Assembly (NCBI GenBank): GCA_009927255.1
Contig: RFNJ01000124.1
Location: forward strand, 1-43,846
From: Pseudomonadota bacterium
GTDB taxonomy: Bacteria; Pseudomonadota; Alphaproteobacteria; UBA2136; UBA6156
DNA: 43,846 nucleotides
Direction of reading: 5' to 3'
Positions within the stretch are counted from its first letter, which is position 1. Every line of letters begins with the position of its first letter. The translations under genes were made by a program, and so were the position numbers. Positions 3,940-26,239 of the stretch are shown in pieces. The notes under the pieces are model-generated. The model did not search any database, had not been told where the DNA came from, and worked only from the letters and a program-made list of their open reading frames with translations.

Positions 3940-4431
3940 ATGAAGATCTCTTATTTGGTTGGTTGTGTTTTGCTGGTAGCTTTGATGCTGTTGGGTGGTG
4001 ATGTTGTGGCGCAGGCTCAGGCGGGGGATACGGCAATTTCCCAAGCCAAAGTGGTTTATTGTGGGATGAAGGGGTTGATTGAAGGCAATTTGGGGCTGGT
4101 GGCAGGGTTGATTATGGCATTTTTGGGCGTGTGGGGGCTGATTAATGGCGGCAGCTTGATGACCGGCATTGTGTTTATTGTGGCAGGGGCCAGTTTAACC
4201 GCCATTCCGGGAATGGTGGAAAGCACGCTGGGTGGGTTTGGTGCGCTGATTAAAGAAGCAGGATTTACCACAAAAGAACAGAGTATAAGTGCTTTTTTGT
4301 GCACGAGCAGTGATTCTCCAAGCCCGGTACAAGATTATGGTAACGAAAAACCACTAACATCTGAACAGCTTGATCAAAGAAATAGAGCTGCAAACGAGCA
4401 GTGTACTGGCGGCCATCTTGATTGTCTCTAA
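3940..4431 (+). CDS. Secreted/membrane protein with VirB2/TrbC-pilin-like layout plus a Cys-containing C-terminal tail
   Basis: ATG at 3940 (the track start 3922 is TTG). Signal peptide ends AQAQA, followed by two Gly/Ala-rich hydrophobic helices (LGLVAGLIMAFLGVWGLI, GIVFIVAGASLTAIPGMV) and a lower-GC polar tail. Confidence 0.4.
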   Translation: MKISYLVGCVLLVALMLLGGDVVAQAQAGDTAISQAKVVYCGMKGLIEGNLGLVAGLIMAFLGVWGLINGGSLMTGIVFIVAGASLTAIPGMVESTLGGFGALIKEAGFTTKEQSISAFLCTSSDSPSPVQDYGNEKPLTSEQLDQRNRAANEQCTGGHLDCL

Positions 4432-15235: not shown

Positions 15236-17032
15236 TTAGCGGATAATATTCACAAGTTCTTGCAGCATTTCGTTCACCACCGTGATGATGCGCGCGCTGG
15301 CTTGAAAACTGTTTTGATAGACCAGCATTTGGCTGAGTTCTTCGTTAATGTTCACGCCGGCAATGCTGCTGAGCGATTGGTCGAGCTGTTGCTTGAGGTT
15401 TTCGTTGAAGCTGACGCGGTCTTTGGCATCGGCCACCTGCACCGCCAAGTTACCGGCCACTTGGGTGGTATAGCCCACCAAGGTGGCGGTTTGTGCGGCC
15501 AGCCCGCCCGCGGCGGGAATGGAGAATTTGGTATCGGCGAGTTTGGCAAGGTCGGTAATATTGCGGTTATCGAGGCTGCTGAGGCCGCCATCGGTGGTGC
15601 GCATGCGGGCGGTGGGGAGGTTGTCGGGGTTGTTGAGCATTCCAGACGCAACTGCAATATTCGTGCTGCTGGTGCCGGTGAAGAGGTTGTTCATTCCCAA
15701 AATACCCAGCGGGTTGCCGCTGGAGTTGTTGCTCAGCACAATCCGGTGGTTGGGGTTGTTGGCTTGGATTTGCAGGATGGGGCGGCCATCGGAATTGGTG
15801 AGGGCGGTGGCTGTCATGGTGGCGCTGACGGCACCGTTGGCGTTGATGGTGTTGGCCAAGTTGGTGAGCGAATAGGGGCCGGGCAAGCCGGGGATGGTAA
15901 CGGCGGTGCCGTTGATGGTGCTGGCCACGGGGTTGCCCAAGGTATCCACTACGCTGATGTGGAAGCTTTGGTTGGCCAGGGCGGGGTCGAGGTCGGTAAA
16001 CATATTGCTTGCCGTGCTGGACATCACGGTGGTGTTGGCGCTGGTAAGCGCGCGTACGGGGGGAAAGCTGCTGCCTTGGCTGCTGAGCCTGTTCACTTGG
16101 GTAATCAGGGTGCTGGTGAATTGGTCGATTTGGGCCAGCAAGTTGGGGACGTTGGTATCGCGGACATCGACCAGCGCTTTGATTTTGCCGCTGGTGAGGG
16201 TGGCGGTGTTGATGTCGAACAGGGTGGGGTCGAGCGTGCCATCCACCTTAACGTTTTGCACGCTGATGGCGCTGTAGGGGCTGCCGGTGGTGCGGGTGAG
16301 TTGGACGTAGGAGACATCGTCCACCAGCTTGCGACCATTTTCGGTGGTGATGCGCACGCCGCCGTTGCTGGTGTTTTCGCTGACTTGGATTTTAAAGCGT
16401 TCAGCCAGTTGGTTGATTTTGGTAGCGCGGGCGTCGAGCAAGTCATTGGCATTGGCGCCGTTGCTGCTGCTGAGTCCTTGGGCGGTGATTTGGATGTTGA
16501 GGTTGTAGATATCTTTGATGATTTGGTTGGTTACTGCAAGGTCAGCACTAATGGCATTATCGGCATCGGTGGCGATGGTTTTGAGTTTACCACCGACATC
16601 TTGCAGGGTGCGGGCGAGTAAATCGGCCTGCTGGATAACGTTGCGTTTAAGTGCGGAGTTGCCGGGTTCGTTGGAGGCTTGGTTGAGGGATTCGATGAAG
16701 CTCCCCACGGTGGCATCCAGCCCGCCTTGGCTGCCGGCGTTGCTGAGGGTATTTTCCAGCGATTCCATCAGCGTGCGGCGCTGGGTGGCGAAGGCGGTAT
16801 CGGACCCCGCGTTGATTTGGCGGCTGGCGATGAACCTATCGGTAATGCGTTGGATGCTATCGAGCTGCACGCCGTTGCCGAAGCCGTTGGCGCTGGTGGC
16901 GCTGGTTTGCACCTGTTGGCGCGAATAGCCAACCGTGTTGATGTTGGCGATGTTGTGCGACACCGTGCCCAAGCCCAGCTGGGCCAGCTGCATGCCAGAA
17001 GTGCCGATGCGGAGTGAATTGCCTAAACTCAT
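15236..17032 (-). CDS. flgK: Flagellar hook-associated protein 1, FlgK
   Basis: N-terminus MSLGNSLRIGTSGMQLAQLGLGTVSHNIANINTVGYSRQ. C-terminus EELSQMLVYQNSFQASARII. Confidence 0.9.
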   Translation of the reverse strand: MSLGNSLRIGTSGMQLAQLGLGTVSHNIANINTVGYSRQQVQTSATSANGFGNGVQLDSIQRITDRFIASRQINAGSDTAFATQRRTLMESLENTLSNAGSQGGLDATVGSFIESLNQASNEPGNSALKRNVIQQADLLARTLQDVGGKLKTIATDADNAISADLAVTNQIIKDIYNLNIQITAQGLSSSNGANANDLLDARATKINQLAERFKIQVSENTSNGGVRITTENGRKLVDDVSYVQLTRTTGSPYSAISVQNVKVDGTLDPTLFDINTATLTSGKIKALVDVRDTNVPNLLAQIDQFTSTLITQVNRLSSQGSSFPPVRALTSANTTVMSSTASNMFTDLDPALANQSFHISVVDTLGNPVASTINGTAVTIPGLPGPYSLTNLANTINANGAVSATMTATALTNSDGRPILQIQANNPNHRIVLSNNSSGNPLGILGMNNLFTGTSSTNIAVASGMLNNPDNLPTARMRTTDGGLSSLDNRNITDLAKLADTKFSIPAAGGLAAQTATLVGYTTQVAGNLAVQVADAKDRVSFNENLKQQLDQSLSSIAGVNINEELSQMLVYQNSFQASARIITVVNEMLQELVNIIR

Positions 17033-17043
17033 ATCATTGCCTT

Positions 17044-17059
17044 TGCAAGTTGTGTGCCA
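17044..17059 (-). promoter_or_regulatory. sigma54 -24/-12 promoter for flgK (TGGCAC-ACAAC-TTGCA)
   Basis: The minus strand reads ATGGCACACAACTTGCAAAGGCAATGAT-ATG. GG and GC are at consensus spacing, with 12 nt from the C of GC to the flgK ATG. Confidence 0.7.
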
Positions 17060-17071
17060 TGGGCGATTTTA

Positions 17072-17518
17072 TTAGACATGGCGAGCCACCAAGCGGGTTT
17101 GGGCGTAGGTATTTTGGTAAGCGCCGGTGGCAGAATACAGCTGGGCTTTGGGGGCATTTGCCTCCATTTCATCGCGCACCGCCACAATGATATCGGCGCG
17201 CACTTGGTGGGCGGCTTGCAGCGCAATGCTGTTTTGTTTGCTCATCAGTTGGAAGTGCTGCATTTCTTCCGCCAACTGGATAGCTTGATAGCGGCTGGCG
17301 GTATCGGTTTTCCAGCCCGTGCCTTGCTTTTTAAGCTCGGCAAGGATTTGCTCCAGCCGAATAGTGAGGCGTTTTTTGTGTTGCAGCAGGGTTTCGAGTT
17401 GGGCGGATTGATGGCGGCCGAGCATGGCATTTTCTTGCGCCATCACCGCCATCAGTTCGCGGCAGGTTTGGCTGGCGTGTTGCATCAGTTGCAATGCGGG
17501 GGTGGCGGGGAGGTTCAT
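17072..17518 (-). CDS. flgN: FlgN-like flagellar export chaperone
   Basis: 148-aa helical protein directly upstream of flgK. N-terminal L..L...C.EL..V...EN..L pattern. Confidence 0.55.
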   Translation of the reverse strand: MNLPATPALQLMQHASQTCRELMAVMAQENAMLGRHQSAQLETLLQHKKRLTIRLEQILAELKKQGTGWKTDTASRYQAIQLAEEMQHFQLMSKQNSIALQAAHQVRADIIVAVRDEMEANAPKAQLYSATGAYQNTYAQTRLVARHV

Positions 17519-17543: not shown

Positions 17544-17909
17544 TTATTTTGGAAGTTGGGTTTGGGTGTTAATCAGGGCGGATTCGGGGATGGTTTGTTG
17601 GCTTGGCAGAGCCGTATTTTGCCCTTGCTCTTGCTTGCGCAGCAGCTCGGCATAAACTTGCTTGGCGATGCCGAAGCCGCCAGTTTGCGCAATGTTGTTA
17701 GCCAGCTGTTCTTGCAGGTGGTGGCTGAACATCTCTTCGCCCGCGCCGCCGTTCATCACCTTGCTCTCGTTTTTGGGCATTGTAAGGTTAATAAACTGGT
17801 AGATATAAAAGGCTTCGAACTCCTGCGATTTTTGCTGGAGCTTGGCCTTAACCTCGGCGGGCACGGTGCTGCCCAAATTGGCCGAGATTGGTGTGAGTAT
17901 ATTAACCAT
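17544..17909 (-). CDS. flgJ: Rod-binding protein (FlgJ N-terminal domain / CheL-like)
   Basis: SQEFEAFYIYQFINLTM...GGAGEEMF...L...IAQTGGFGIAKQVY. No muramidase domain. Confidence 0.7.
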   Translation of the reverse strand: MVNILTPISANLGSTVPAEVKAKLQQKSQEFEAFYIYQFINLTMPKNESKVMNGGAGEEMFSHHLQEQLANNIAQTGGFGIAKQVYAELLRKQEQGQNTALPSQQTIPESALINTQTQLPK

Positions 17910-19039
17910 TAGAGCACCACCAATTCAGCTTGCAGGGCGCCTGCGGCTTTGATGTTTTGCAGGATGCTGATGATATCGCGTGGTTTAACACCCAGTGCAT
18001 TGAGGCCGCTGACAAGGTCGGACAGCGAGGCGCCACCTTGCAGGATGCTGAACTTGCCTTTGGCGGGATCGTTATCAATTTTCTCGATGGTGGTTTTATC
18101 AATGGTAACGGTTTCGCCAGCCACGTTGAAGCTGACCGGTTGTGACACCTGTTTTTCTTCGGTAATTTTAATAATTAAGTTGGCGTGGCTGATGGCAACC
18201 GGGGCAATCCGCACGTTTTCGCCCATCACCACCGTGCCGGTTTTTTCGTCAATCACCACGCGGGCTTCGGTGGCGGGTTCCACTTGCAGGTTTTCAATTT
18301 TCTCAATAATCGCGGCGATTTCGCCTTGATAACGGGTGGGCACTTGCACTTTAATCAGGCCGTTATCGGCGGTGCTGGCCAGTTCTTCCTTAAAGGCTTT
18401 GTTGATGCTTTCCTTCAGGCGCATGGCGGTGGTGAAATCGGGCTGGCGGAGGATGAATTTAAGCTGGTTGCCAAGTTGGGAGAGTTCAAACCCCGATTCA
18501 CGCTCTACCAGCGCACCCGCGGCAATCCGCGCCACGGTGGGGTGGTTTTTACTAAGGCTAGAGCCATCCTTACCCGTGGCCTGAAAACCGCCCACCACCA
18601 TCGCGCCTTGGGCCACGGCATAGGTTTCCCCATCCGCCGCCACCAGCGGTGTGGCCAGTAGCATGCCGCCTTCCAGCGATTTGGCATCGCCCAGCGAACT
18701 GACGGTGACATCTACTTTGGAACCTTGGCGGGCAAGGCTGGGCAGCTTGGCGGTGACCATCACCGCCGCCACGTTTTTGGTTTTGATTTGGCTGAGCACA
18801 TCTTTAGCGTTCACGCCCAAACGCTCCAGCATGTTAGAGAGTGATTGGCGGGTGAAGGGGATGCCGTTGGCGCTGTCGCCCGTGCCTGCCAAACCGACCA
18901 CCAGGCCGTAGCCCACCAGCACGTTTTCGCGCACACCTTCAATATCGGCAAGGTCTTTCACTTTGGCGCTGGGGGCAGCGTGCAAGCTGGGGGAGAACAT
19001 GATGGCGACGGTGAGGAGCAGGGTGAGGAGTGTTTTCAT
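17909..19039 (-). CDS. flgI: Flagellar P-ring protein FlgI
   Basis: Signal peptide then KDLADIEGVRENVLVGYGLVVGLAGTGD. C-terminus LNALGVKPRDIISILQNIKAAGALQAELVVL. Confidence 0.95.
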   Translation of the reverse strand: MKTLLTLLLTVAIMFSPSLHAAPSAKVKDLADIEGVRENVLVGYGLVVGLAGTGDSANGIPFTRQSLSNMLERLGVNAKDVLSQIKTKNVAAVMVTAKLPSLARQGSKVDVTVSSLGDAKSLEGGMLLATPLVAADGETYAVAQGAMVVGGFQATGKDGSSLSKNHPTVARIAAGALVERESGFELSQLGNQLKFILRQPDFTTAMRLKESINKAFKEELASTADNGLIKVQVPTRYQGEIAAIIEKIENLQVEPATEARVVIDEKTGTVVMGENVRIAPVAISHANLIIKITEEKQVSQPVSFNVAGETVTIDKTTIEKIDNDPAKGKFSILQGGASLSDLVSGLNALGVKPRDIISILQNIKAAGALQAELVVL

Positions 19040-19050
19040 GCCATGCCAGA

Positions 19051-19066
19051 TGCATGGGGCGTGCCA
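19051..19066 (-). promoter_or_regulatory. sigma54 -24/-12 promoter for flgI (TGGCAC-GCCCC-ATGCA)
   Basis: The minus strand reads TTGGCACGCCCCATGCATCTGGCATGGC-ATG, with 12 nt from the C of GC to the flgI ATG. Confidence 0.6.
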
Positions 19067-19105
19067 AGGTTTATTTTATGTTGTTGCACAAGGGGTTATT
19101 TTGGT

Positions 19106-19121
19106 TGGCATGGGGTGTGCA
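19106..19121 (+). promoter_or_regulatory. sigma54 -24/-12 promoter for flgB operon (TGGCAT-GGGGT-GTGCA)
   Basis: GG/GC at consensus spacing. Followed by a roughly 33-nt leader with [10 protein letters not shown] before ATG 19165. Confidence 0.55.
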
Positions 19122-19164
19122 TTAATATGAACAATTGGCATAACGGAATAAGAGGAGAATAACC

Positions 19165-19548
19165 ATGGCCAGCGTAAGTGATGCCCTGAGTGCCCGGATG
19201 AACTACCTGATTGCGCGGCAGGGAATGATTGCCAGCAACATTGCCAATGCCGATACACCCGAATATCTGCCCAAAGATTTGGTGGCGCGTGCTGGTGGCA
19301 GCGCGCGCAGCAACTTTGGCATGGCCGTAAGCAACGCCATGCACATGGCGGGTGGCAGCGGCGCCAAACTGAAGAGCCTTGGCAGCGTGGTGGAAGACCA
19401 ACGCTTTGTGCAGCACAACGGCAACGGCGTGCGGATTGACCAAGAAATGCTGAAGATGAACGAAACCCAGCTGAATTATCGGCTGATGACCGAGCTTTAT
19501 AGCAAACAAGTGAACCTGCAGCGCATTGCAATGGGCCGTGGGCGCTAG
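19165..19548 (+). CDS. flgB: Flagellar basal-body rod protein FlgB
   Basis: NIANADTPEY motif. 127 aa. First gene of flgB-flgC-fliE. Confidence 0.85.
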   Translation: MASVSDALSARMNYLIARQGMIASNIANADTPEYLPKDLVARAGGSARSNFGMAVSNAMHMAGGSGAKLKSLGSVVEDQRFVQHNGNGVRIDQEMLKMNETQLNYRLMTELYSKQVNLQRIAMGRGR

Positions 19549-19568
19549 AGGATAAAGGAGCATAAACC

Positions 19569-19976
19569 ATGGACTTAATGGATAGCCTGAAAGTAAGTTC
19601 CAGCGGCATGCTGGGGCAAAGCCAGCGGATGAAGGTGGCCGCCGAGAACATTGCCAACGCCGATAGCATGCAGCGGGCGAATGGCGAGGGGCCGTATCGC
19701 GCCAAACAGGTGGTGTTTAAAAGCGTGCTGAACCGCGTGAGTGGCCTCACCGAACTGCAAGCCAGCGTGCAAGAAGATAATGTTTCGCCGCTGCGGCCGG
19801 AGTATCGGCCCGGCCACGAACTGGCCGATGCCCGCGGCTTTGTGCTGCTGCCCAATGTGGATAGCACGGTGGAAAGCCTGAACATGCGCGAGGCCCAGCG
19901 CAGCTACGAAGCCAACATGGCCGCCATTACCACCGCGCGGGATATGATGGGGCGGAGCTTGGATATGCTACGATAA
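19569..19976 (+). CDS. flgC: Flagellar basal-body rod protein FlgC
   Basis: AENIANADS, LPNVD and REAQRSYEAN motifs. Confidence 0.9.
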   Translation: MDLMDSLKVSSSGMLGQSQRMKVAAENIANADSMQRANGEGPYRAKQVVFKSVLNRVSGLTELQASVQEDNVSPLRPEYRPGHELADARGFVLLPNVDSTVESLNMREAQRSYEANMAAITTARDMMGRSLDMLR

Positions 19977-20778: not shown

Positions 20779-21551
20779 TTGGCGCTTACTTAGCGGAACT
20801 TTTGGTCTTTCCCTTTTTCTTGATTTTCGCTCGCCTTGGGGCGGCGGTGATGGTCTTTCCGGCCCTTTCGGATATGGCGGTGCCGGTGCGGTTTCGGTTG
20901 CTGATGGCGGTGGCGATCAGCGCAGTATTTTTTCCGCTGTTACAGCCGGGGTTACCCGCGATGCCCGGGCAAACCGGCGCGATGCTGGCACTGGTGTTGG
21001 GGGAAATTTTTGTAGGGATTTTGATGGCGCTGGGCGCCCGTCTGTTTATCGCCGCCTTTGCAGTAGCGGGTGAGATTATTGCGTTTATGGCAGGCTTCCA
21101 AAGTGCCACGTTGTTTGACCCCCAAAGCGCCAGCAACACCGTGGCACCCACGCTGTTTTTAAGCATCACCGCCGCCGCCATGCTACTGGCGTTGAATTTG
21201 CACCACGATCTCATCCGCGCGGTGGCCGCCAGTTATGTCGCATTTCCGGCCGGGGTTTGGCCGGAGATTGAGGATGTGAACATGGCGGTGATTGAAATTG
21301 TCGCGCAGCTGTTTGCGCTGGGCGTGCAGCTGGCGGCGCCGATTATTCTGGTGGGGCTGCTGGCCAATGCCTTGTTTGGCGTGCTGGGGCGTTTAATTCC
21401 CCAGTTGCAGGTGTTTTACGTCAGCATTCCGGTGAGCATTACCCTTAGCCTGCTGGTACTGGCGGCGGGGCTTAGTGCGATGATGGAGTTGTGGACGGAT
21501 ACGGTTGCGGGTAAGATGAGCGTATTCCAGATTGAAGAAAGTTTGCGCTGA
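20775..21551 (+). CDS. fliR: Flagellar export apparatus protein FliR
   Basis: 258-aa polytopic protein. The ATGA start overlaps the fliQ stop. Confidence 0.9.
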   Translation: MIGAYLAELLVFPFFLIFARLGAAVMVFPALSDMAVPVRFRLLMAVAISAVFFPLLQPGLPAMPGQTGAMLALVLGEIFVGILMALGARLFIAAFAVAGEIIAFMAGFQSATLFDPQSASNTVAPTLFLSITAAAMLLALNLHHDLIRAVAASYVAFPAGVWPEIEDVNMAVIEIVAQLFALGVQLAAPIILVGLLANALFGVLGRLIPQLQVFYVSIPVSITLSLLVLAAGLSAMMELWTDTVAGKMSVFQIEESLR

Positions 21552-21955
21552 TGGTGCTGAATATTCAAGGTTTAAAAGGGCCGCAGGCGGCAGATAAAGC
21601 CAAAGGCAAAGCCAAAGTTGGTGAAGGCGGGGCCAAATTTGCCGAACTTTTAGAGGCCGCGCAAACAGGCGAAACGCCTGCGCCAGCGCCGACATTTGGC
21701 TTAGGCGTGCAAGTGCCAGTGTTTGGCTTGGCAGATGAGGTGCCGCGTGATGCCAAAGGCCAAGCGCGAGAGCTTTTGAAAACTTTGCGCGAGGTTGCCG
21801 ATGCCGCCTTGGGTGGCGAAAACATGCAGCGCGTGCAGCGGCTGGAAGCTTTGGCGAATGAGGTGGATGAAAGCACCCTAAGCAGCACGCAAAAAGAAGC
21901 ATTGGCCGAAGTGCGCACCCGTGCCGCGGTTGAGGTGGCGAAGCTGAAAGGCTAG
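21551..21955 (+). CDS. fliX: FliX-like class II flagellar assembly regulator (tentative)
   Basis: 134 aa. The ATG overlaps the fliR TGA. The C-terminus ALAEVRTRAAVEVAKLKG and the central RELLKTLREVADAALGG resemble my recollection of Caulobacter FliX (..IETRAAVE.AKLE). Confidence 0.5.
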   Translation: MVLNIQGLKGPQAADKAKGKAKVGEGGAKFAELLEAAQTGETPAPAPTFGLGVQVPVFGLADEVPRDAKGQARELLKTLREVADAALGGENMQRVQRLEALANEVDESTLSSTQKEALAEVRTRAAVEVAKLKG

Positions 21956-23769: not shown

Positions 23770-24228
23770 CTAGTTAATCTCAACAATGTTATTTGCATGA
23801 ACCGTGCCGATAAGCGTGCTGCGGGTGGCGGGGTTCAGCACTTTAATCGTTTGGCCTACTTGGCCATCTTCCAGTGCGGTGCCGCTGCCGGTCAGTTCAA
23901 TCCCGCCACGGCTAAAGCGCAGTACCACGGCGGTGTTGCGCGCAATGGCGGGCGCCACGCGCAGGTGCAGTTTGCTAATCGGCTGGCCCGCAGCTAGGGG
24001 GCGCACCGCTTGCAAGCCCTCTATTTGCTGTGGTTGGGTTACGGTGCTGGCAAACACGCTGCCTGCGCTGGTGGCTTGCAGCATGATGTTTTCGGGCATA
24101 ATTGTTTGGCCTTTTTGCACCGCTTGCTTCAATACCGGCACGCTGATGGTCGGCAGCGGTGCCTCTGCCCAGCTGCTGCCCGCGCTGAACACCAGCAGCA
24201 GGGTGATGGGGATGTTGATGAGTTTCAT
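23770..24228 (-). CDS. flgA: Flagellar P-ring assembly chaperone FlgA
   Basis: Signal peptide, SAF-like domain, C-terminal GQTIKVLNPATRSTLIGTV. Confidence 0.8.
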   Translation of the reverse strand: MKLINIPITLLLVFSAGSSWAEAPLPTISVPVLKQAVQKGQTIMPENIMLQATSAGSVFASTVTQPQQIEGLQAVRPLAAGQPISKLHLRVAPAIARNTAVVLRFSRGGIELTGSGTALEDGQVGQTIKVLNPATRSTLIGTVHANNIVEIN

Positions 24229-24236
24229 GCGCCTGC

Positions 24237-24434
24237 CTACGACATTACAATCACGGGGATTGCCACCACCACAATGAAAATGGCCATTGCTGCGCGGAAA
24301 GTAAGCGTAACGGGTTCAGCCTGCTGGGTTAGGTCTTTCCAAGTTAGCAGGGCAAACACGCCGTCGCGTTGCAGCACGGTGGTTTCTTCGGGTTCGGAGT
24401 TGAGCCAGTTGATGGTTTTAGCAATCAGTTTCAT
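24237..24434 (-). CDS. Small hypothetical protein with C-terminal TM anchor (65 aa) between flgG and flgA
   Basis: An ORF in operon context whose stop lies 8 nt before the flgA ATG. C-terminal AAMAIFIVVVAIPVIVMS. No family recognised. Confidence 0.3.
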   Translation of the reverse strand: MKLIAKTINWLNSEPEETTVLQRDGVFALLTWKDLTQQAEPVTLTFRAAMAIFIVVVAIPVIVMS

Positions 24435-24528: not shown

Positions 24529-24544
24529 TGCAGGAGGCGTGCCA
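24529..24544 (-). promoter_or_regulatory. sigma54 -24/-12 promoter inside the flgG-flgA spacer (TGGCAC-GCCTC-CTGCA)
   Basis: The minus strand reads TTGGCACGCCTCCTGCAT. It overlaps the hairpin CCTCCTGC/GCAGGAGG. About an 84-nt leader runs to ATG 24434. Confidence 0.5.
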
Positions 24545-24590: not shown

Positions 24591-25373
24591 TTAGCGGAGC
24601 TGGGTGAGGGTTGTCAGCATTTCATCGGCGGTGGAGATGACGCGGCTGTTAAGTTCATAGGCGCGCTGGGCGGTGATGAGGCGGGTAATGCTCTCAATTG
24701 CGTCCACGTTGCTGGTTTCTAGGAAGTTCTGGCTAAAGGTTCCGGCGCCATTTTCGCCCGCCGTTGCATCGGTGGCGGCGCTACTGGCTTCGGTTTCGCG
24801 GTAAAGATTATTCCCAATATTCTCCAATCCAGCTTCGTTGGTGAACATCGCCAATGTGAGTGTGCCAAGCTGGGTAACAACGTTATTTACTTTGGCGCTT
24901 ACCGTGCCGGTGGCAGTCACAGTGAAGTCGGTAGCATTGGTGGGCACGGTAATGGCGGGGTCAATCGGGTAACCATCTTTGGTCACAATCTGGCCGTCTT
25001 GGTTCAGTTGGAATGAGCCATCGCGGGTGTAGGCGGTGGTGCCATCCGGCATGGTGATGCGAAAGAACCCGCGCCCCGAAACCGCAAGGTCAAACTGGTT
25101 GCCAGTATTCTGCAAATTCCCCTGTTTCATCAGCTTATACACACTGCCCACACTCACGCCTAGGCCTACTTGCAGGCCGGTGGGAGCCAAGTTGCCCGCG
25201 CTGCTGGTAATCGCGCCAACGCCAATTTGGTTTTGGTAAACCAGGTCGTTAAAGGTGGGCATTTGCTGCTTAAAGCCGGTGGTGTTCAGGTTGGCAATGT
25301 TGTTCGAAAGCACGTCCACATTCAGCTGCTGGGCGTGCATGCCGGTGGCGGCGATTCGCAGGGCTTGCATCAT
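24591..25373 (-). CDS. flgG: Flagellar distal rod protein FlgG
   Basis: MMQALRIAATGM.AQQ..VDVLSNNIANLNTTGFK. C-terminal ITAQRAYELNSRVI. SD AAGGAG lies 8 nt upstream. Confidence 0.95.
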   Translation of the reverse strand: MMQALRIAATGMHAQQLNVDVLSNNIANLNTTGFKQQMPTFNDLVYQNQIGVGAITSSAGNLAPTGLQVGLGVSVGSVYKLMKQGNLQNTGNQFDLAVSGRGFFRITMPDGTTAYTRDGSFQLNQDGQIVTKDGYPIDPAITVPTNATDFTVTATGTVSAKVNNVVTQLGTLTLAMFTNEAGLENIGNNLYRETEASSAATDATAGENGAGTFSQNFLETSNVDAIESITRLITAQRAYELNSRVISTADEMLTTLTQLR

Positions 25374-25400: not shown

Positions 25401-26132
25401 TTATTGGCTGCCACCAAGGGTGCGGATGGCACGGCTTTCAAGTTCCGAAAGGCTTTGCAGGCTGCTCAGGCTGCTTTCATAAGCTTTGGAAACCATCTGC
25501 ATCGTCACCATTTCCTGCACCGCATTCACATTGCTGGCTTCAATGTAACCTTGGCGGATGATGGGCGTTTCCAGCGCCACCGGCCCACCACCGCTACCGG
25601 GCACAAAGGCGGTATTGCCCGCGCGTTGCAGGGTTTTCAGGCCTTCGGGGCTAAACTGATACACCCCAATTTGCGCCAGCTGGCCTTGCTCGGTGCTCAG
25701 CGTGCCATCATTGGCTAGCCGAATATTCCGCACTTCGGGCTGAAACTGGATGGGCGCCCCCGCATTATCCAGCACCGCATAACCTTCCGGCGTGCTCAGT
25801 TGCCCTTCGGCATTCAGCACAAATTGGCCTTTGCGGGTGTACTGGGTGGTGCCATTCACCTCAATCGCAAAAAAGCCGGGGCCACTAATTGCGGCATCCA
25901 GCGGGTTGCCAGTTTGCTGCAACGCACCGTCGGTTTGGTTAAGGCTGATAGAACGGTCTTGCACATAACTAAGCCCGCGCGATTGCGGATTCTGGCGGCT
26001 CAGTACCTCTTTAAAATCCATTTCAATCCGCCGGTAGCCCGCAGTGTTCACGTTGGCCACGTTATCGGCCACCGCGTTAAATTGGTTGCGCATGGTAAGC
26101 GCACGAGAGGCGAGGACGGCGATTTCTTGCAT
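25401..26132 (-). CDS. flgF: Flagellar proximal rod protein FlgF
   Basis: Track ORF trimmed to MQEIAVLASRALTMRNQFNAVADNVANVNTAGYRR. C-terminal rod-protein helix. Confidence 0.85.
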   Translation of the reverse strand: MQEIAVLASRALTMRNQFNAVADNVANVNTAGYRRIEMDFKEVLSRQNPQSRGLSYVQDRSISLNQTDGALQQTGNPLDAAISGPGFFAIEVNGTTQYTRKGQFVLNAEGQLSTPEGYAVLDNAGAPIQFQPEVRNIRLANDGTLSTEQGQLAQIGVYQFSPEGLKTLQRAGNTAFVPGSGGGPVALETPIIRQGYIEASNVNAVQEMVTMQMVSKAYESSLSSLQSLSELESRAIRTLGGSQ

Positions 26133-26143
26133 GCCCTGTGTAA

Positions 26144-26159
26144 TGCAACAGCCGTGCCA
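26144..26159 (-). promoter_or_regulatory. sigma54 -24/-12 promoter for flgF (TGGCAC-GGCTG-TTGCA, full consensus)
   Basis: The minus strand reads TTGGCACGGCTGTTGCATTACACAGGGC-ATG, with 12 nt from the C of GC to the flgF ATG. Confidence 0.75.
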
Positions 26160-26220
26160 AGATGGTGACACACTCGCCACAGGCGGCATTACGCGCCATG
26201 TGGCTACCGCAACAAAAGGG

Positions 26221-26239
26221 TTGTGCTGCGGCAGCACAA
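26221..26239. promoter_or_regulatory. Perfect 19-bp palindrome TTGTGCTGC-G-GCAGCACAA, candidate enhancer-binding-protein or repressor site
   Basis: 9-bp perfect arms. It lies about 60 bp upstream of the flgF -24 element, in the divergent flgF / GGDEF-like spacer. Confidence 0.4.

Follow-up and report, generated by a model that had tools for sequence, protein, structure and literature searches.

Three flagellar genes, flgK, flgI and flgF, in a freshwater metagenome-assembled contig of an alphaproteobacterium (RFNJ01000124.1 of assembly GCA_009927255.1) are each preceded by a sigma-54 promoter whose -12 element stands exactly 12 nucleotides (nt) from the start codon. The whole contig, 43,846 nt long, was analysed and is called the window below. 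Spacing always denotes the number of nt between the C of the -12 GC doublet and the A of the start ATG. A promoter placed in this way is predicted to start transcription at the A of the ATG itself, and we consider it probable that the sigma-54 transcripts of flgK, flgI and flgF are leaderless and are translated from a 5'-terminal AUG. Such transcripts had been proposed in a preliminary description of the window. They are now supported by the geometry of mapped promoters in Caulobacter crescentus, by conservation of the spacing in relatives, by a two-peaked distribution of spacings, and by the ATG codon and the pyrimidine in front of it.

Sigma-54 promoters and start codons

All three promoters lie on the coding strand upstream of flagellar genes, and they read exactly as the preliminary description had noted, with three sigma-54 matches set directly against start codons at 12 nt each. 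On the minus strand, the start region of flgK is TGGCACACAACTTGCA-AAGGCAATGAT-ATG (17059 to 17030), that of flgI is TGGCACGCCCCATGCA-TCTGGCATGGC-ATG (19066 to 19037) and that of flgF is TGGCACGGCTGTTGCA-TTACACAGGGC-ATG (26159 to 26130). The flgK promoter (17044..17059, with GG at 17057-17058 and GC at 17045-17046) matches TGGCAC-N5-TTGCA exactly; the 11-nt spacer that follows (17033..17043) makes up the 12 nt together with the final A of TTGCA. The promoter of flgI lies at 19051..19066 and that of flgF at 26144..26159. The GG and GC doublets are 10 nt apart, and against the slightly wider consensus TGGCAC-N5-TTGCW the mismatches number 0 in flgK, 1 in flgI and 0 in flgF. The pattern common to the three sites is TGGCAC-N5-(T/A)TGCA, followed by 11 nt and ATG.

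The motif TGGCAC-N6-TGCA occurs four times in the window, compared with 0.26 occurrences expected from dinucleotide-preserving shuffles, and all four sites are on the minus strand within the flagellar cluster. When N11-ATG is appended to it, three sites are found and 0.00 expected, which agrees with the earlier statement that a geometry repeated three times is unlikely to be due to chance.

The three ATGs are, as judged from the limits of the open reading frames (ORFs), the FlgI signal peptide and N-terminal homology, the real starts, and the homology that had been invoked for them proved sound. The gene flgK (15236..17032, minus strand) codes for the 598-amino-acid (aa) hook-associated protein 1, with Pfam domains FlgK_D1, Flg_bb_rod and Flg_bbr_C, and starts with the ATG at 17030-17032. 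The gene flgI (17909..19039, minus strand) codes for the P-ring protein with its signal peptide (376 aa; Pfam FlgI, E = 1e-132) and starts with the ATG at 19037-19039. Neither ORF offers an earlier codon at which translation could start. In FlgI, the chosen ATG opens the signal peptide, MKTLLTLLLTVAIMFSPSLHA/AP, which aligns with signal peptides of 32 homologues; because it needs this codon, the ATG of flgI is taken to be the true start. The N-terminus of FlgK follows the pattern MS..N.LRIG common to relatives. In flgF (25401..26132, minus strand; 243 aa, proximal rod protein according to Pfam), the ATG at 26130-26132 opens the N-terminus MQE[IL]AVLASR, here MQEIAVLASR, which is common to about 40 homologues of 241-247 aa. 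A database call of 262 aa for flgF, with the start placed 19 codons upstream, was rejected as an error of the gene caller on the strength of this shared N-terminus.

Misplaced starts were also met at other genes lacking a Shine-Dalgarno (SD) sequence. Besides the window flgF, called 19 codons too long (26133-26189), they concern three loci fetched from relatives, which are numbered L001 and so on. The flgF gene of L163 and the flgI gene of L003 were each called three codons too long (MGD-MQE and MLA-MRAF, respectively), and flgI of L173 was called 13 codons too short, so that the charged start of its signal peptide was lost. We ascribe these four errors to the missing SD.

Predicted transcription start

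Global 5'-RACE mapping in Caulobacter (PMC4287350, S15 dataset) has listed start sites preceded by GGCNC-N4-CTTGC together with the position of the 5' G. Among proper GG...TGC motifs, this G lies at -26 in about ten cases, at -27 in three and at -25 in two (PMC4287350). A 5' G at the modal -26 places the C of the GC doublet at -13, with 12 nt between it and +1. The modal Caulobacter geometry is therefore equal to a spacing of 12, and +1 is predicted to fall on the A of each ATG.

The base at -1 is a pyrimidine, C or T, in all of the genes at spacing 11-13 that were examined (14/14). Transcription usually favours a purine start preceded by a pyrimidine, and a C or T before the A of the ATG fits this preference. 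The promoters, their spacing, the true start codons and the conservation and two-peaked distribution of the spacing are shown by the sequences, whereas for the three genes we infer where the transcripts begin, that they require sigma-54 and an activator, and that they are translated without a leader.

Spacing in related genomes

The comparison set consisted of 80 flgI loci from GTDB genomes and 14 loci obtained by exact-protein look-up. Three of the latter (L169-L171) are copies of the window's own contig, which NCBI also lists under GCA_009924635.1, and L001 and L161 belong to one genome. The closest FlgI proteins come from uncultured Alphaproteobacteria (75-84% identity), followed by those of Magnetococcales at about 60%. 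A scan of metagenome contigs with a FlgF alignment returned only distant relatives of FlgF or FlgG, with identity of 38% at most, and none of the window's lineage.

Thirty orthologous promoter-gene pairs could be compared in the lineage. The spacing is 12 in 18 of them, 11 in one and 13 in one; none falls between 14 and 27, and the remaining ten have spacings of 28-52. The constant member is flgK, which has the leaderless-type geometry (spacing 11-13) in 8/8 lineage genomes, the window and seven relatives: the value is 12 in the window, L002, L004, L166, L173 and L174, 13 in L001 and 11 in L172, and no flgK has a spacing of 28 or more. In flgF the spacing is 12 in 7/11 cases (the window, L161, L162, L163, L164, L167 and L174) and 37-52 in L165, L166, L168 and L172, where an SD-like site is present in three of the four. 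In flgI it is 12 in 5/11 cases (the window, L002, L003, L005 and L173) and 28-45 in L001, L004, L165, L166, L172 and L174, most of which have an SD-like site, for example GAGAGGA or AAGGAAG.

While the length of the 11-nt spacer is fixed, its sequence is merely 29-45% identical between relatives. Conserved positions are T or A at the first two nt, G at -3 (12/14) and the pyrimidine at -1. All 20 genes at spacing 11-13 begin with ATG, which is weak evidence, as ATG dominates in these genomes anyway. The states of the three genes form a mosaic: with the spacings of flgK, flgI and flgF given in this order, the window has 12, 12 and 12, the L001/L161 genome 13, 28 and 12, L174 12, 30 and 12, and L166 12, 42 and 52. 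Gain or loss of the leaderless-type geometry must therefore have happened repeatedly, and the pattern does not represent one inherited accident.

A sigma-54 promoter upstream of flgI is present in nearly all of the 80 alphaproteobacterial loci. Outside the lineage, the first in-frame starts of flgI are mostly 20-75 nt from the promoter, and an in-frame ATG at 12 was found in one of about 75 outgroup flgI loci, L054. In Magnetococcales-like outgroups, flgK has leaders of about 50 nt with an SD.

Two loci have a dual arrangement. In L005 (9920-9975), an in-frame ATG at 12 is followed in the same frame by AAGGAG-N8-GTG at 39; in L054, the in-frame ATG at 12 is followed in the same frame by AAAGAGG and an ATG at 36. 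These dual starts may be intermediates between the leaderless and the leadered state, or they may give rise to two N-termini.

Proposed mode of expression

We propose that a FlbD-type activator, presumed here to be under the control of FliX, would remodel the sigma-54 closed complex, and that RNA polymerase would then start at the A of the ATG, which is nucleotide 13 counted from the C of the -12 GC. The product would be an mRNA beginning with 5'-pppAUG. The 70S ribosome would bind the 5'-terminal AUG of the first cistron with no SD pairing required, and the cistrons downstream of flgK, flgI and flgF (flgL, the flgJ-like gene and flgG, respectively) would be translated from ordinary SD sites. 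Selection would hold the spacing at 12 (range 11-13) or favour a switch to a leader of at least about 15 nt, mostly bearing an SD.

Such selection is consistent with reporter experiments in Caulobacter, in which each nt added before a leaderless AUG cuts translation about two-fold and non-AUG codons are poor (PMC8459731). Natural mRNAs with leaders of 1-10 nt are depleted there relative to leaderless ones (PMC8459731). The two-peaked spacing with its gap at 14-27 would thus arise because the start is fixed by the -12 GC and short leaders are penalised. Alphaproteobacteria possess many leaderless mRNAs and translate them efficiently, with 375 of them in Caulobacter, 171 in S. meliloti and 192 in B. 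japonicum, which makes the translation step plausible here as well. Over their first 25-40 nt, the mRNAs predicted for flgI and flgF have almost no structure, with a dG of 0 to -0.2 kcal/mol over 25-30 nt. These two 5' ends are among the least structured 4-11% of windows within the gene, while that of flgK is average; gene starts are weakly structured in general, so that the comparison discriminates poorly.

Evidence weighing against leaderless transcripts

Several observations count against this interpretation. The start chosen at sigma-54 promoters shifts by about 1 nt in both directions (PMC4287350), so that a 1-nt leader, or a 5' end within the AUG, may occur in some transcripts. The organism is known from metagenomes only, the sequencing runs found to contain the locus were all DNA metagenomes, and three metatranscriptomes from one of the studies concerned yielded only a 36-nt chance piece on the region. 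No rpoN or activator gene was found in the window by Pfam scans, flbD also lying outside it, and no conserved enhancer, such as an ftr-like inverted repeat, was common to relatives within 200 nt upstream of the promoters. SD-energy scoring gave only weak purine-rich SD-like sites for many genes of the organism, and alphaproteobacteria, as seen in Caulobacter, translate SD-less mRNAs well. For these two reasons, a missing SD is not diagnostic alone and was not used as primary evidence.

Further objections concern flgK. Its upstream DNA, TTGCAAAGGCAATGATATG, contains a weak AAGG 7 nt before the ATG, overlapping the -12 region; flgH, flhB and flgL have GAAAGG-type sites with equal spacing. The preliminary description had held that no SD could fit before any of the three genes. 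This is correct for flgI and flgF, where SD-energy scoring detected no SD-like pairing upstream of the ATG, and has to be withdrawn for the DNA in front of flgK. A transcript starting at the ATG, as predicted, has no upstream sequence and hence no SD available, and the AAGG of flgK would be present only in read-through transcripts from co-oriented upstream genes. Since such genes end 39 nt upstream of flgK, the further claim that all three genes are the first of their operons stands for flgI and flgF, which face divergent genes, and fails for flgK, which does not head an isolated operon. It is probable that flgK can also be translated from read-through mRNA.

Alternative explanations

The most serious alternative is that the sigma-54 transcripts serve mainly the downstream cistrons, and that most FlgK, FlgI and FlgF protein is translated from different transcripts that do have leaders, with initiation at a weak SD or independent of any SD. 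For flgK the source would be read-through from the flgI operon, and for flgI and flgF it would be promoters that lie further upstream and have escaped recognition. We regard this as improbable. It fits flgK best, with its co-oriented neighbours, the 39-nt gap and the AAGG, and it could rely on the efficiency of SD-less initiation in Caulobacter and on the intergenic regions of flgI (125 nt) and flgF (155 nt), which could hold promoter types unmodelled by a simple scan. However, it accounts neither for an exact 12-nt spacing amid drift of the spacer sequence nor for the gap at 14-27. Because flgI and flgF face divergent genes, there is no read-through into either, and no sigma-70-type promoter was found by a scan of the flgI-flgB and flgF upstream regions, a weak negative as the consensus was of the E. 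coli type. In L004, flgK is located in a different genomic context and its spacing is still 12. Moreover, leaving the first cistron untranslated from its own promoter would be wasteful, since the cell requires set quantities of the rod, P-ring and hook-junction proteins.

That the geometry arose by coincidence, or is one neutral trait which close relatives have in common by descent, is very unlikely. Several relatives have FlgI proteins with 75-85% identity, so the cases are not fully independent; but three sites are found where the shuffles give an expectation of none, the spacing recurs in three different genes, the spacer has diverged in sequence and retained its length, leaderless and leadered states are mosaic among genomes, and an in-frame ATG at 12 has a frequency of about 1 in 75 in the outgroup.

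A second in-frame ATG is present at codon 14, 39 nt downstream of the first, in all three genes (MSLGNSLRIGTSGM, MKTLLTLLLTVAIM and MQEIAVLASRALTM; 16991-16993, 18998-19000 and 26091-26093, minus strand), which is probably a coincidence, though an odd one. Mis-assigned starts, with the true start downstream at, for example, this Met14 and a 39-nt leader in front of it, are scarcely credible, and Met14 was rejected: a start there would cost FlgI its signal peptide, and FlgK and FlgF their conserved N-terminal rod-family segment, the residue differs in relatives, and no SD precedes the second ATGs.

Other features of the flagellar cluster

Pfam scans outlined the flagellar cluster of the window. 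Its minus-strand genes are flgF, flgG, a small ORF, flgA and flgH, and then flgI, a flgJ-like gene, a 148-aa ORF, flgK, flgL, csrA and fliW. Its plus-strand genes are flgB and flgC, from 19165, and then fliR, fliX and flhB. The cluster is flanked by housekeeping genes (bc1 complex, uvrA, spoT/relA and nusA). The GC skew of the plus strand is strongly positive, 0.14-0.33 in 4-kb windows, between positions 4000 and 24000, where minus-strand genes predominate.

The flgJ-like rod-binding gene (17544-17909, minus strand) follows flgI. Between it and flgK lies the 148-aa ORF (17072-17518, minus strand), which has only a sub-threshold match to BrnA antitoxin; an ORF of 146-158 aa occupies the same position in relatives. 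The flgG gene (24591-25373, minus strand) follows flgF and has AAGGAG 8 nt before its ATG, the normal SD that had been ascribed to it as an internal gene of the operon. The fliX gene (21551..21955, plus strand) was recognised with Pfam PF10768 FliX at 27.3 bits, against a cut-off of 25.

Two further sigma-54 promoters of the cluster have leaders, as the preliminary description had stated. The first, TGGCATGGGGTGTGCA (19106..19121, plus strand), is the divergent promoter of flgB-flgC, with 44 nt from its C to the ATG at 19165 and AGAGGAG before this ATG. The second, TGGCACGCCTCCTGCA (24529..24544, minus strand), follows flgG and stands about 95 nt from the small ORF; it precedes this 65-aa ORF, flgA and flgH. 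The small ORF itself (24237-24434, minus strand), located between flgG and flgA, has no Pfam match and would have a leader of about 83 nt from its own sigma-54 promoter. An ORF of 59-76 aa is called between flgG and flgA in the relatives examined.

The promoters of flgI and flgB (19051-19121) stand back to back, 39 bp apart and facing outward, and this arrangement is kept in relatives; the upstream enhancer side of each promoter therefore lies in the transcribed region of the other. In L173 only 14 bp separate the pair, which make up a near-perfect inverted repeat. A perfect palindrome, TTGTGCTGCCGCAGCACAA, then CCCTTTTGTT (26221-26239, minus strand), lies upstream of the flgF promoter at an edge-to-edge distance of about 62 bp. 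It is terminator-like according to a terminator scan and is not conserved in relatives; it could be a site for a regulator or enhancer, or could insulate against transcription arriving from upstream.

The 3' end of flgA contains a weaker sigma-54-like site, CGGCACGGTTCATGCA (23794-23809, minus strand), which stands 46 nt upstream of the flgH ATG. In Caulobacter, a mapped start site of flgH is internal to the upstream gene. No motif with a score of at least 6.0 was found as a counterpart in the flgA-flgH loci of the eight relatives scanned. In L161 (the RI_491 genome), a gene for a cytosine/purine-type transporter (18369-19763) is inserted between flgC and fliE, and immediately before fliE there is a strong sigma-54 motif, TGGCACGCTGGTTGCT (about 18391-18406, minus strand), as though the genes cut off by the insertion had regained expression through a new promoter.

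Relation to known systems

The classic example of a leaderless mRNA is that of phage lambda cI transcribed from PRM, which starts on the A of the AUG and is translated without an SD. PRM is a sigma-70 promoter activated by CI itself and belongs to a single phage gene, unlike the sigma-54 flagellar case. Described promoters of leaderless mRNAs have a sigma-70 -10 or extended -10 element in C. jejuni (PMC3847290), B. japonicum and M. xanthus pexR, and according to the B. japonicum paper, promoters specific to leaderless genes had not been described before. The transcripts predicted here would share with other alphaproteobacterial leaderless mRNAs a 5'-terminal AUG, the absence of an SD, intolerance of short leaders and possibly, in flgI and flgF, a 5' end free of structure. 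They would differ in what stands at the fixed distance: in the known cases a sigma-70-type -10 or extended -10, and here the -12 GC of an activator-dependent sigma-54 promoter.

Epsilonproteobacteria offer a parallel to the behaviour of flgI and flgF. Their orthologues alternate between a promoter at the ATG and a leader with a ribosome-binding site, not strictly following the species tree (Porcelli et al. 2013, PMC3847290). The elements concerned are sigma-70 -10 boxes, mostly of stress and repair genes, whereas here they are sigma-54 promoters of flagellar structural genes. A full-text search of the literature found no description of sigma-54-driven leaderless mRNAs, single cases of which may be buried in start-site tables. 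What our results support as new is the combination of a sigma-54 promoter with a leaderless mRNA, both kinds being known separately.

The closest regulatory parallel is the sigma-54 hierarchy of Caulobacter, in which FlbD and FliX act; their role is reviewed in PMC3930126. There, too, flgF, flgI and flgK (flaN) head sigma-54 transcription units, whose start sites were published and later re-mapped. The gene neighbourhoods flgF-flgG-flgA-flgH and flgI plus the rod-binding gene are alike, fliX is in the cluster, and the motif and its distance to the transcription start are equal. Features of a Caulobacter-type hierarchy in the window are fliX and the sigma-54 promoters on flgB, flgF, the small ORF before flgA, flgI and flgK. 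The two systems differ in flgI, whose promoter stands 40-52 nt from the start in the Caulobacteraceae loci L026, L046 and L075, which are leadered, and abuts the ATG here. A second difference is that FlbD and rpoN were not seen in the window.

Implications

The further idea that sigma-54 leaderless mRNAs are a selected regulatory design of the lineage, and not merely a tolerated geometry, is tentative and rather doubtful. If it is true, the first genes of the late flagellar operons would be under purely transcriptional, activator-gated control, exempt from regulators that act on untranslated regions, such as CsrA/FliW, encoded at the end of the cluster. Switches of flgI and flgF between the two states would then mark shifts, genome by genome, between two layers of control.

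If the leaderless sigma-54 transcripts are confirmed, they would mean that an activator-dependent sigma-54 promoter can also deliver a transcript with a 5'-AUG, that the -12 GC serves as a ruler fixing the start codon, and that this design serves the flagellar structural genes of an entire lineage. The signature TGGCAC-N5-TTGCW-N11-ATG could be used for finding such genes in genomes and for correcting gene callers at starts like the four mis-called ones. The mosaic of leaderless and SD-led orthologues in this lineage would present a natural experiment on the interconversion of translation-initiation modes.

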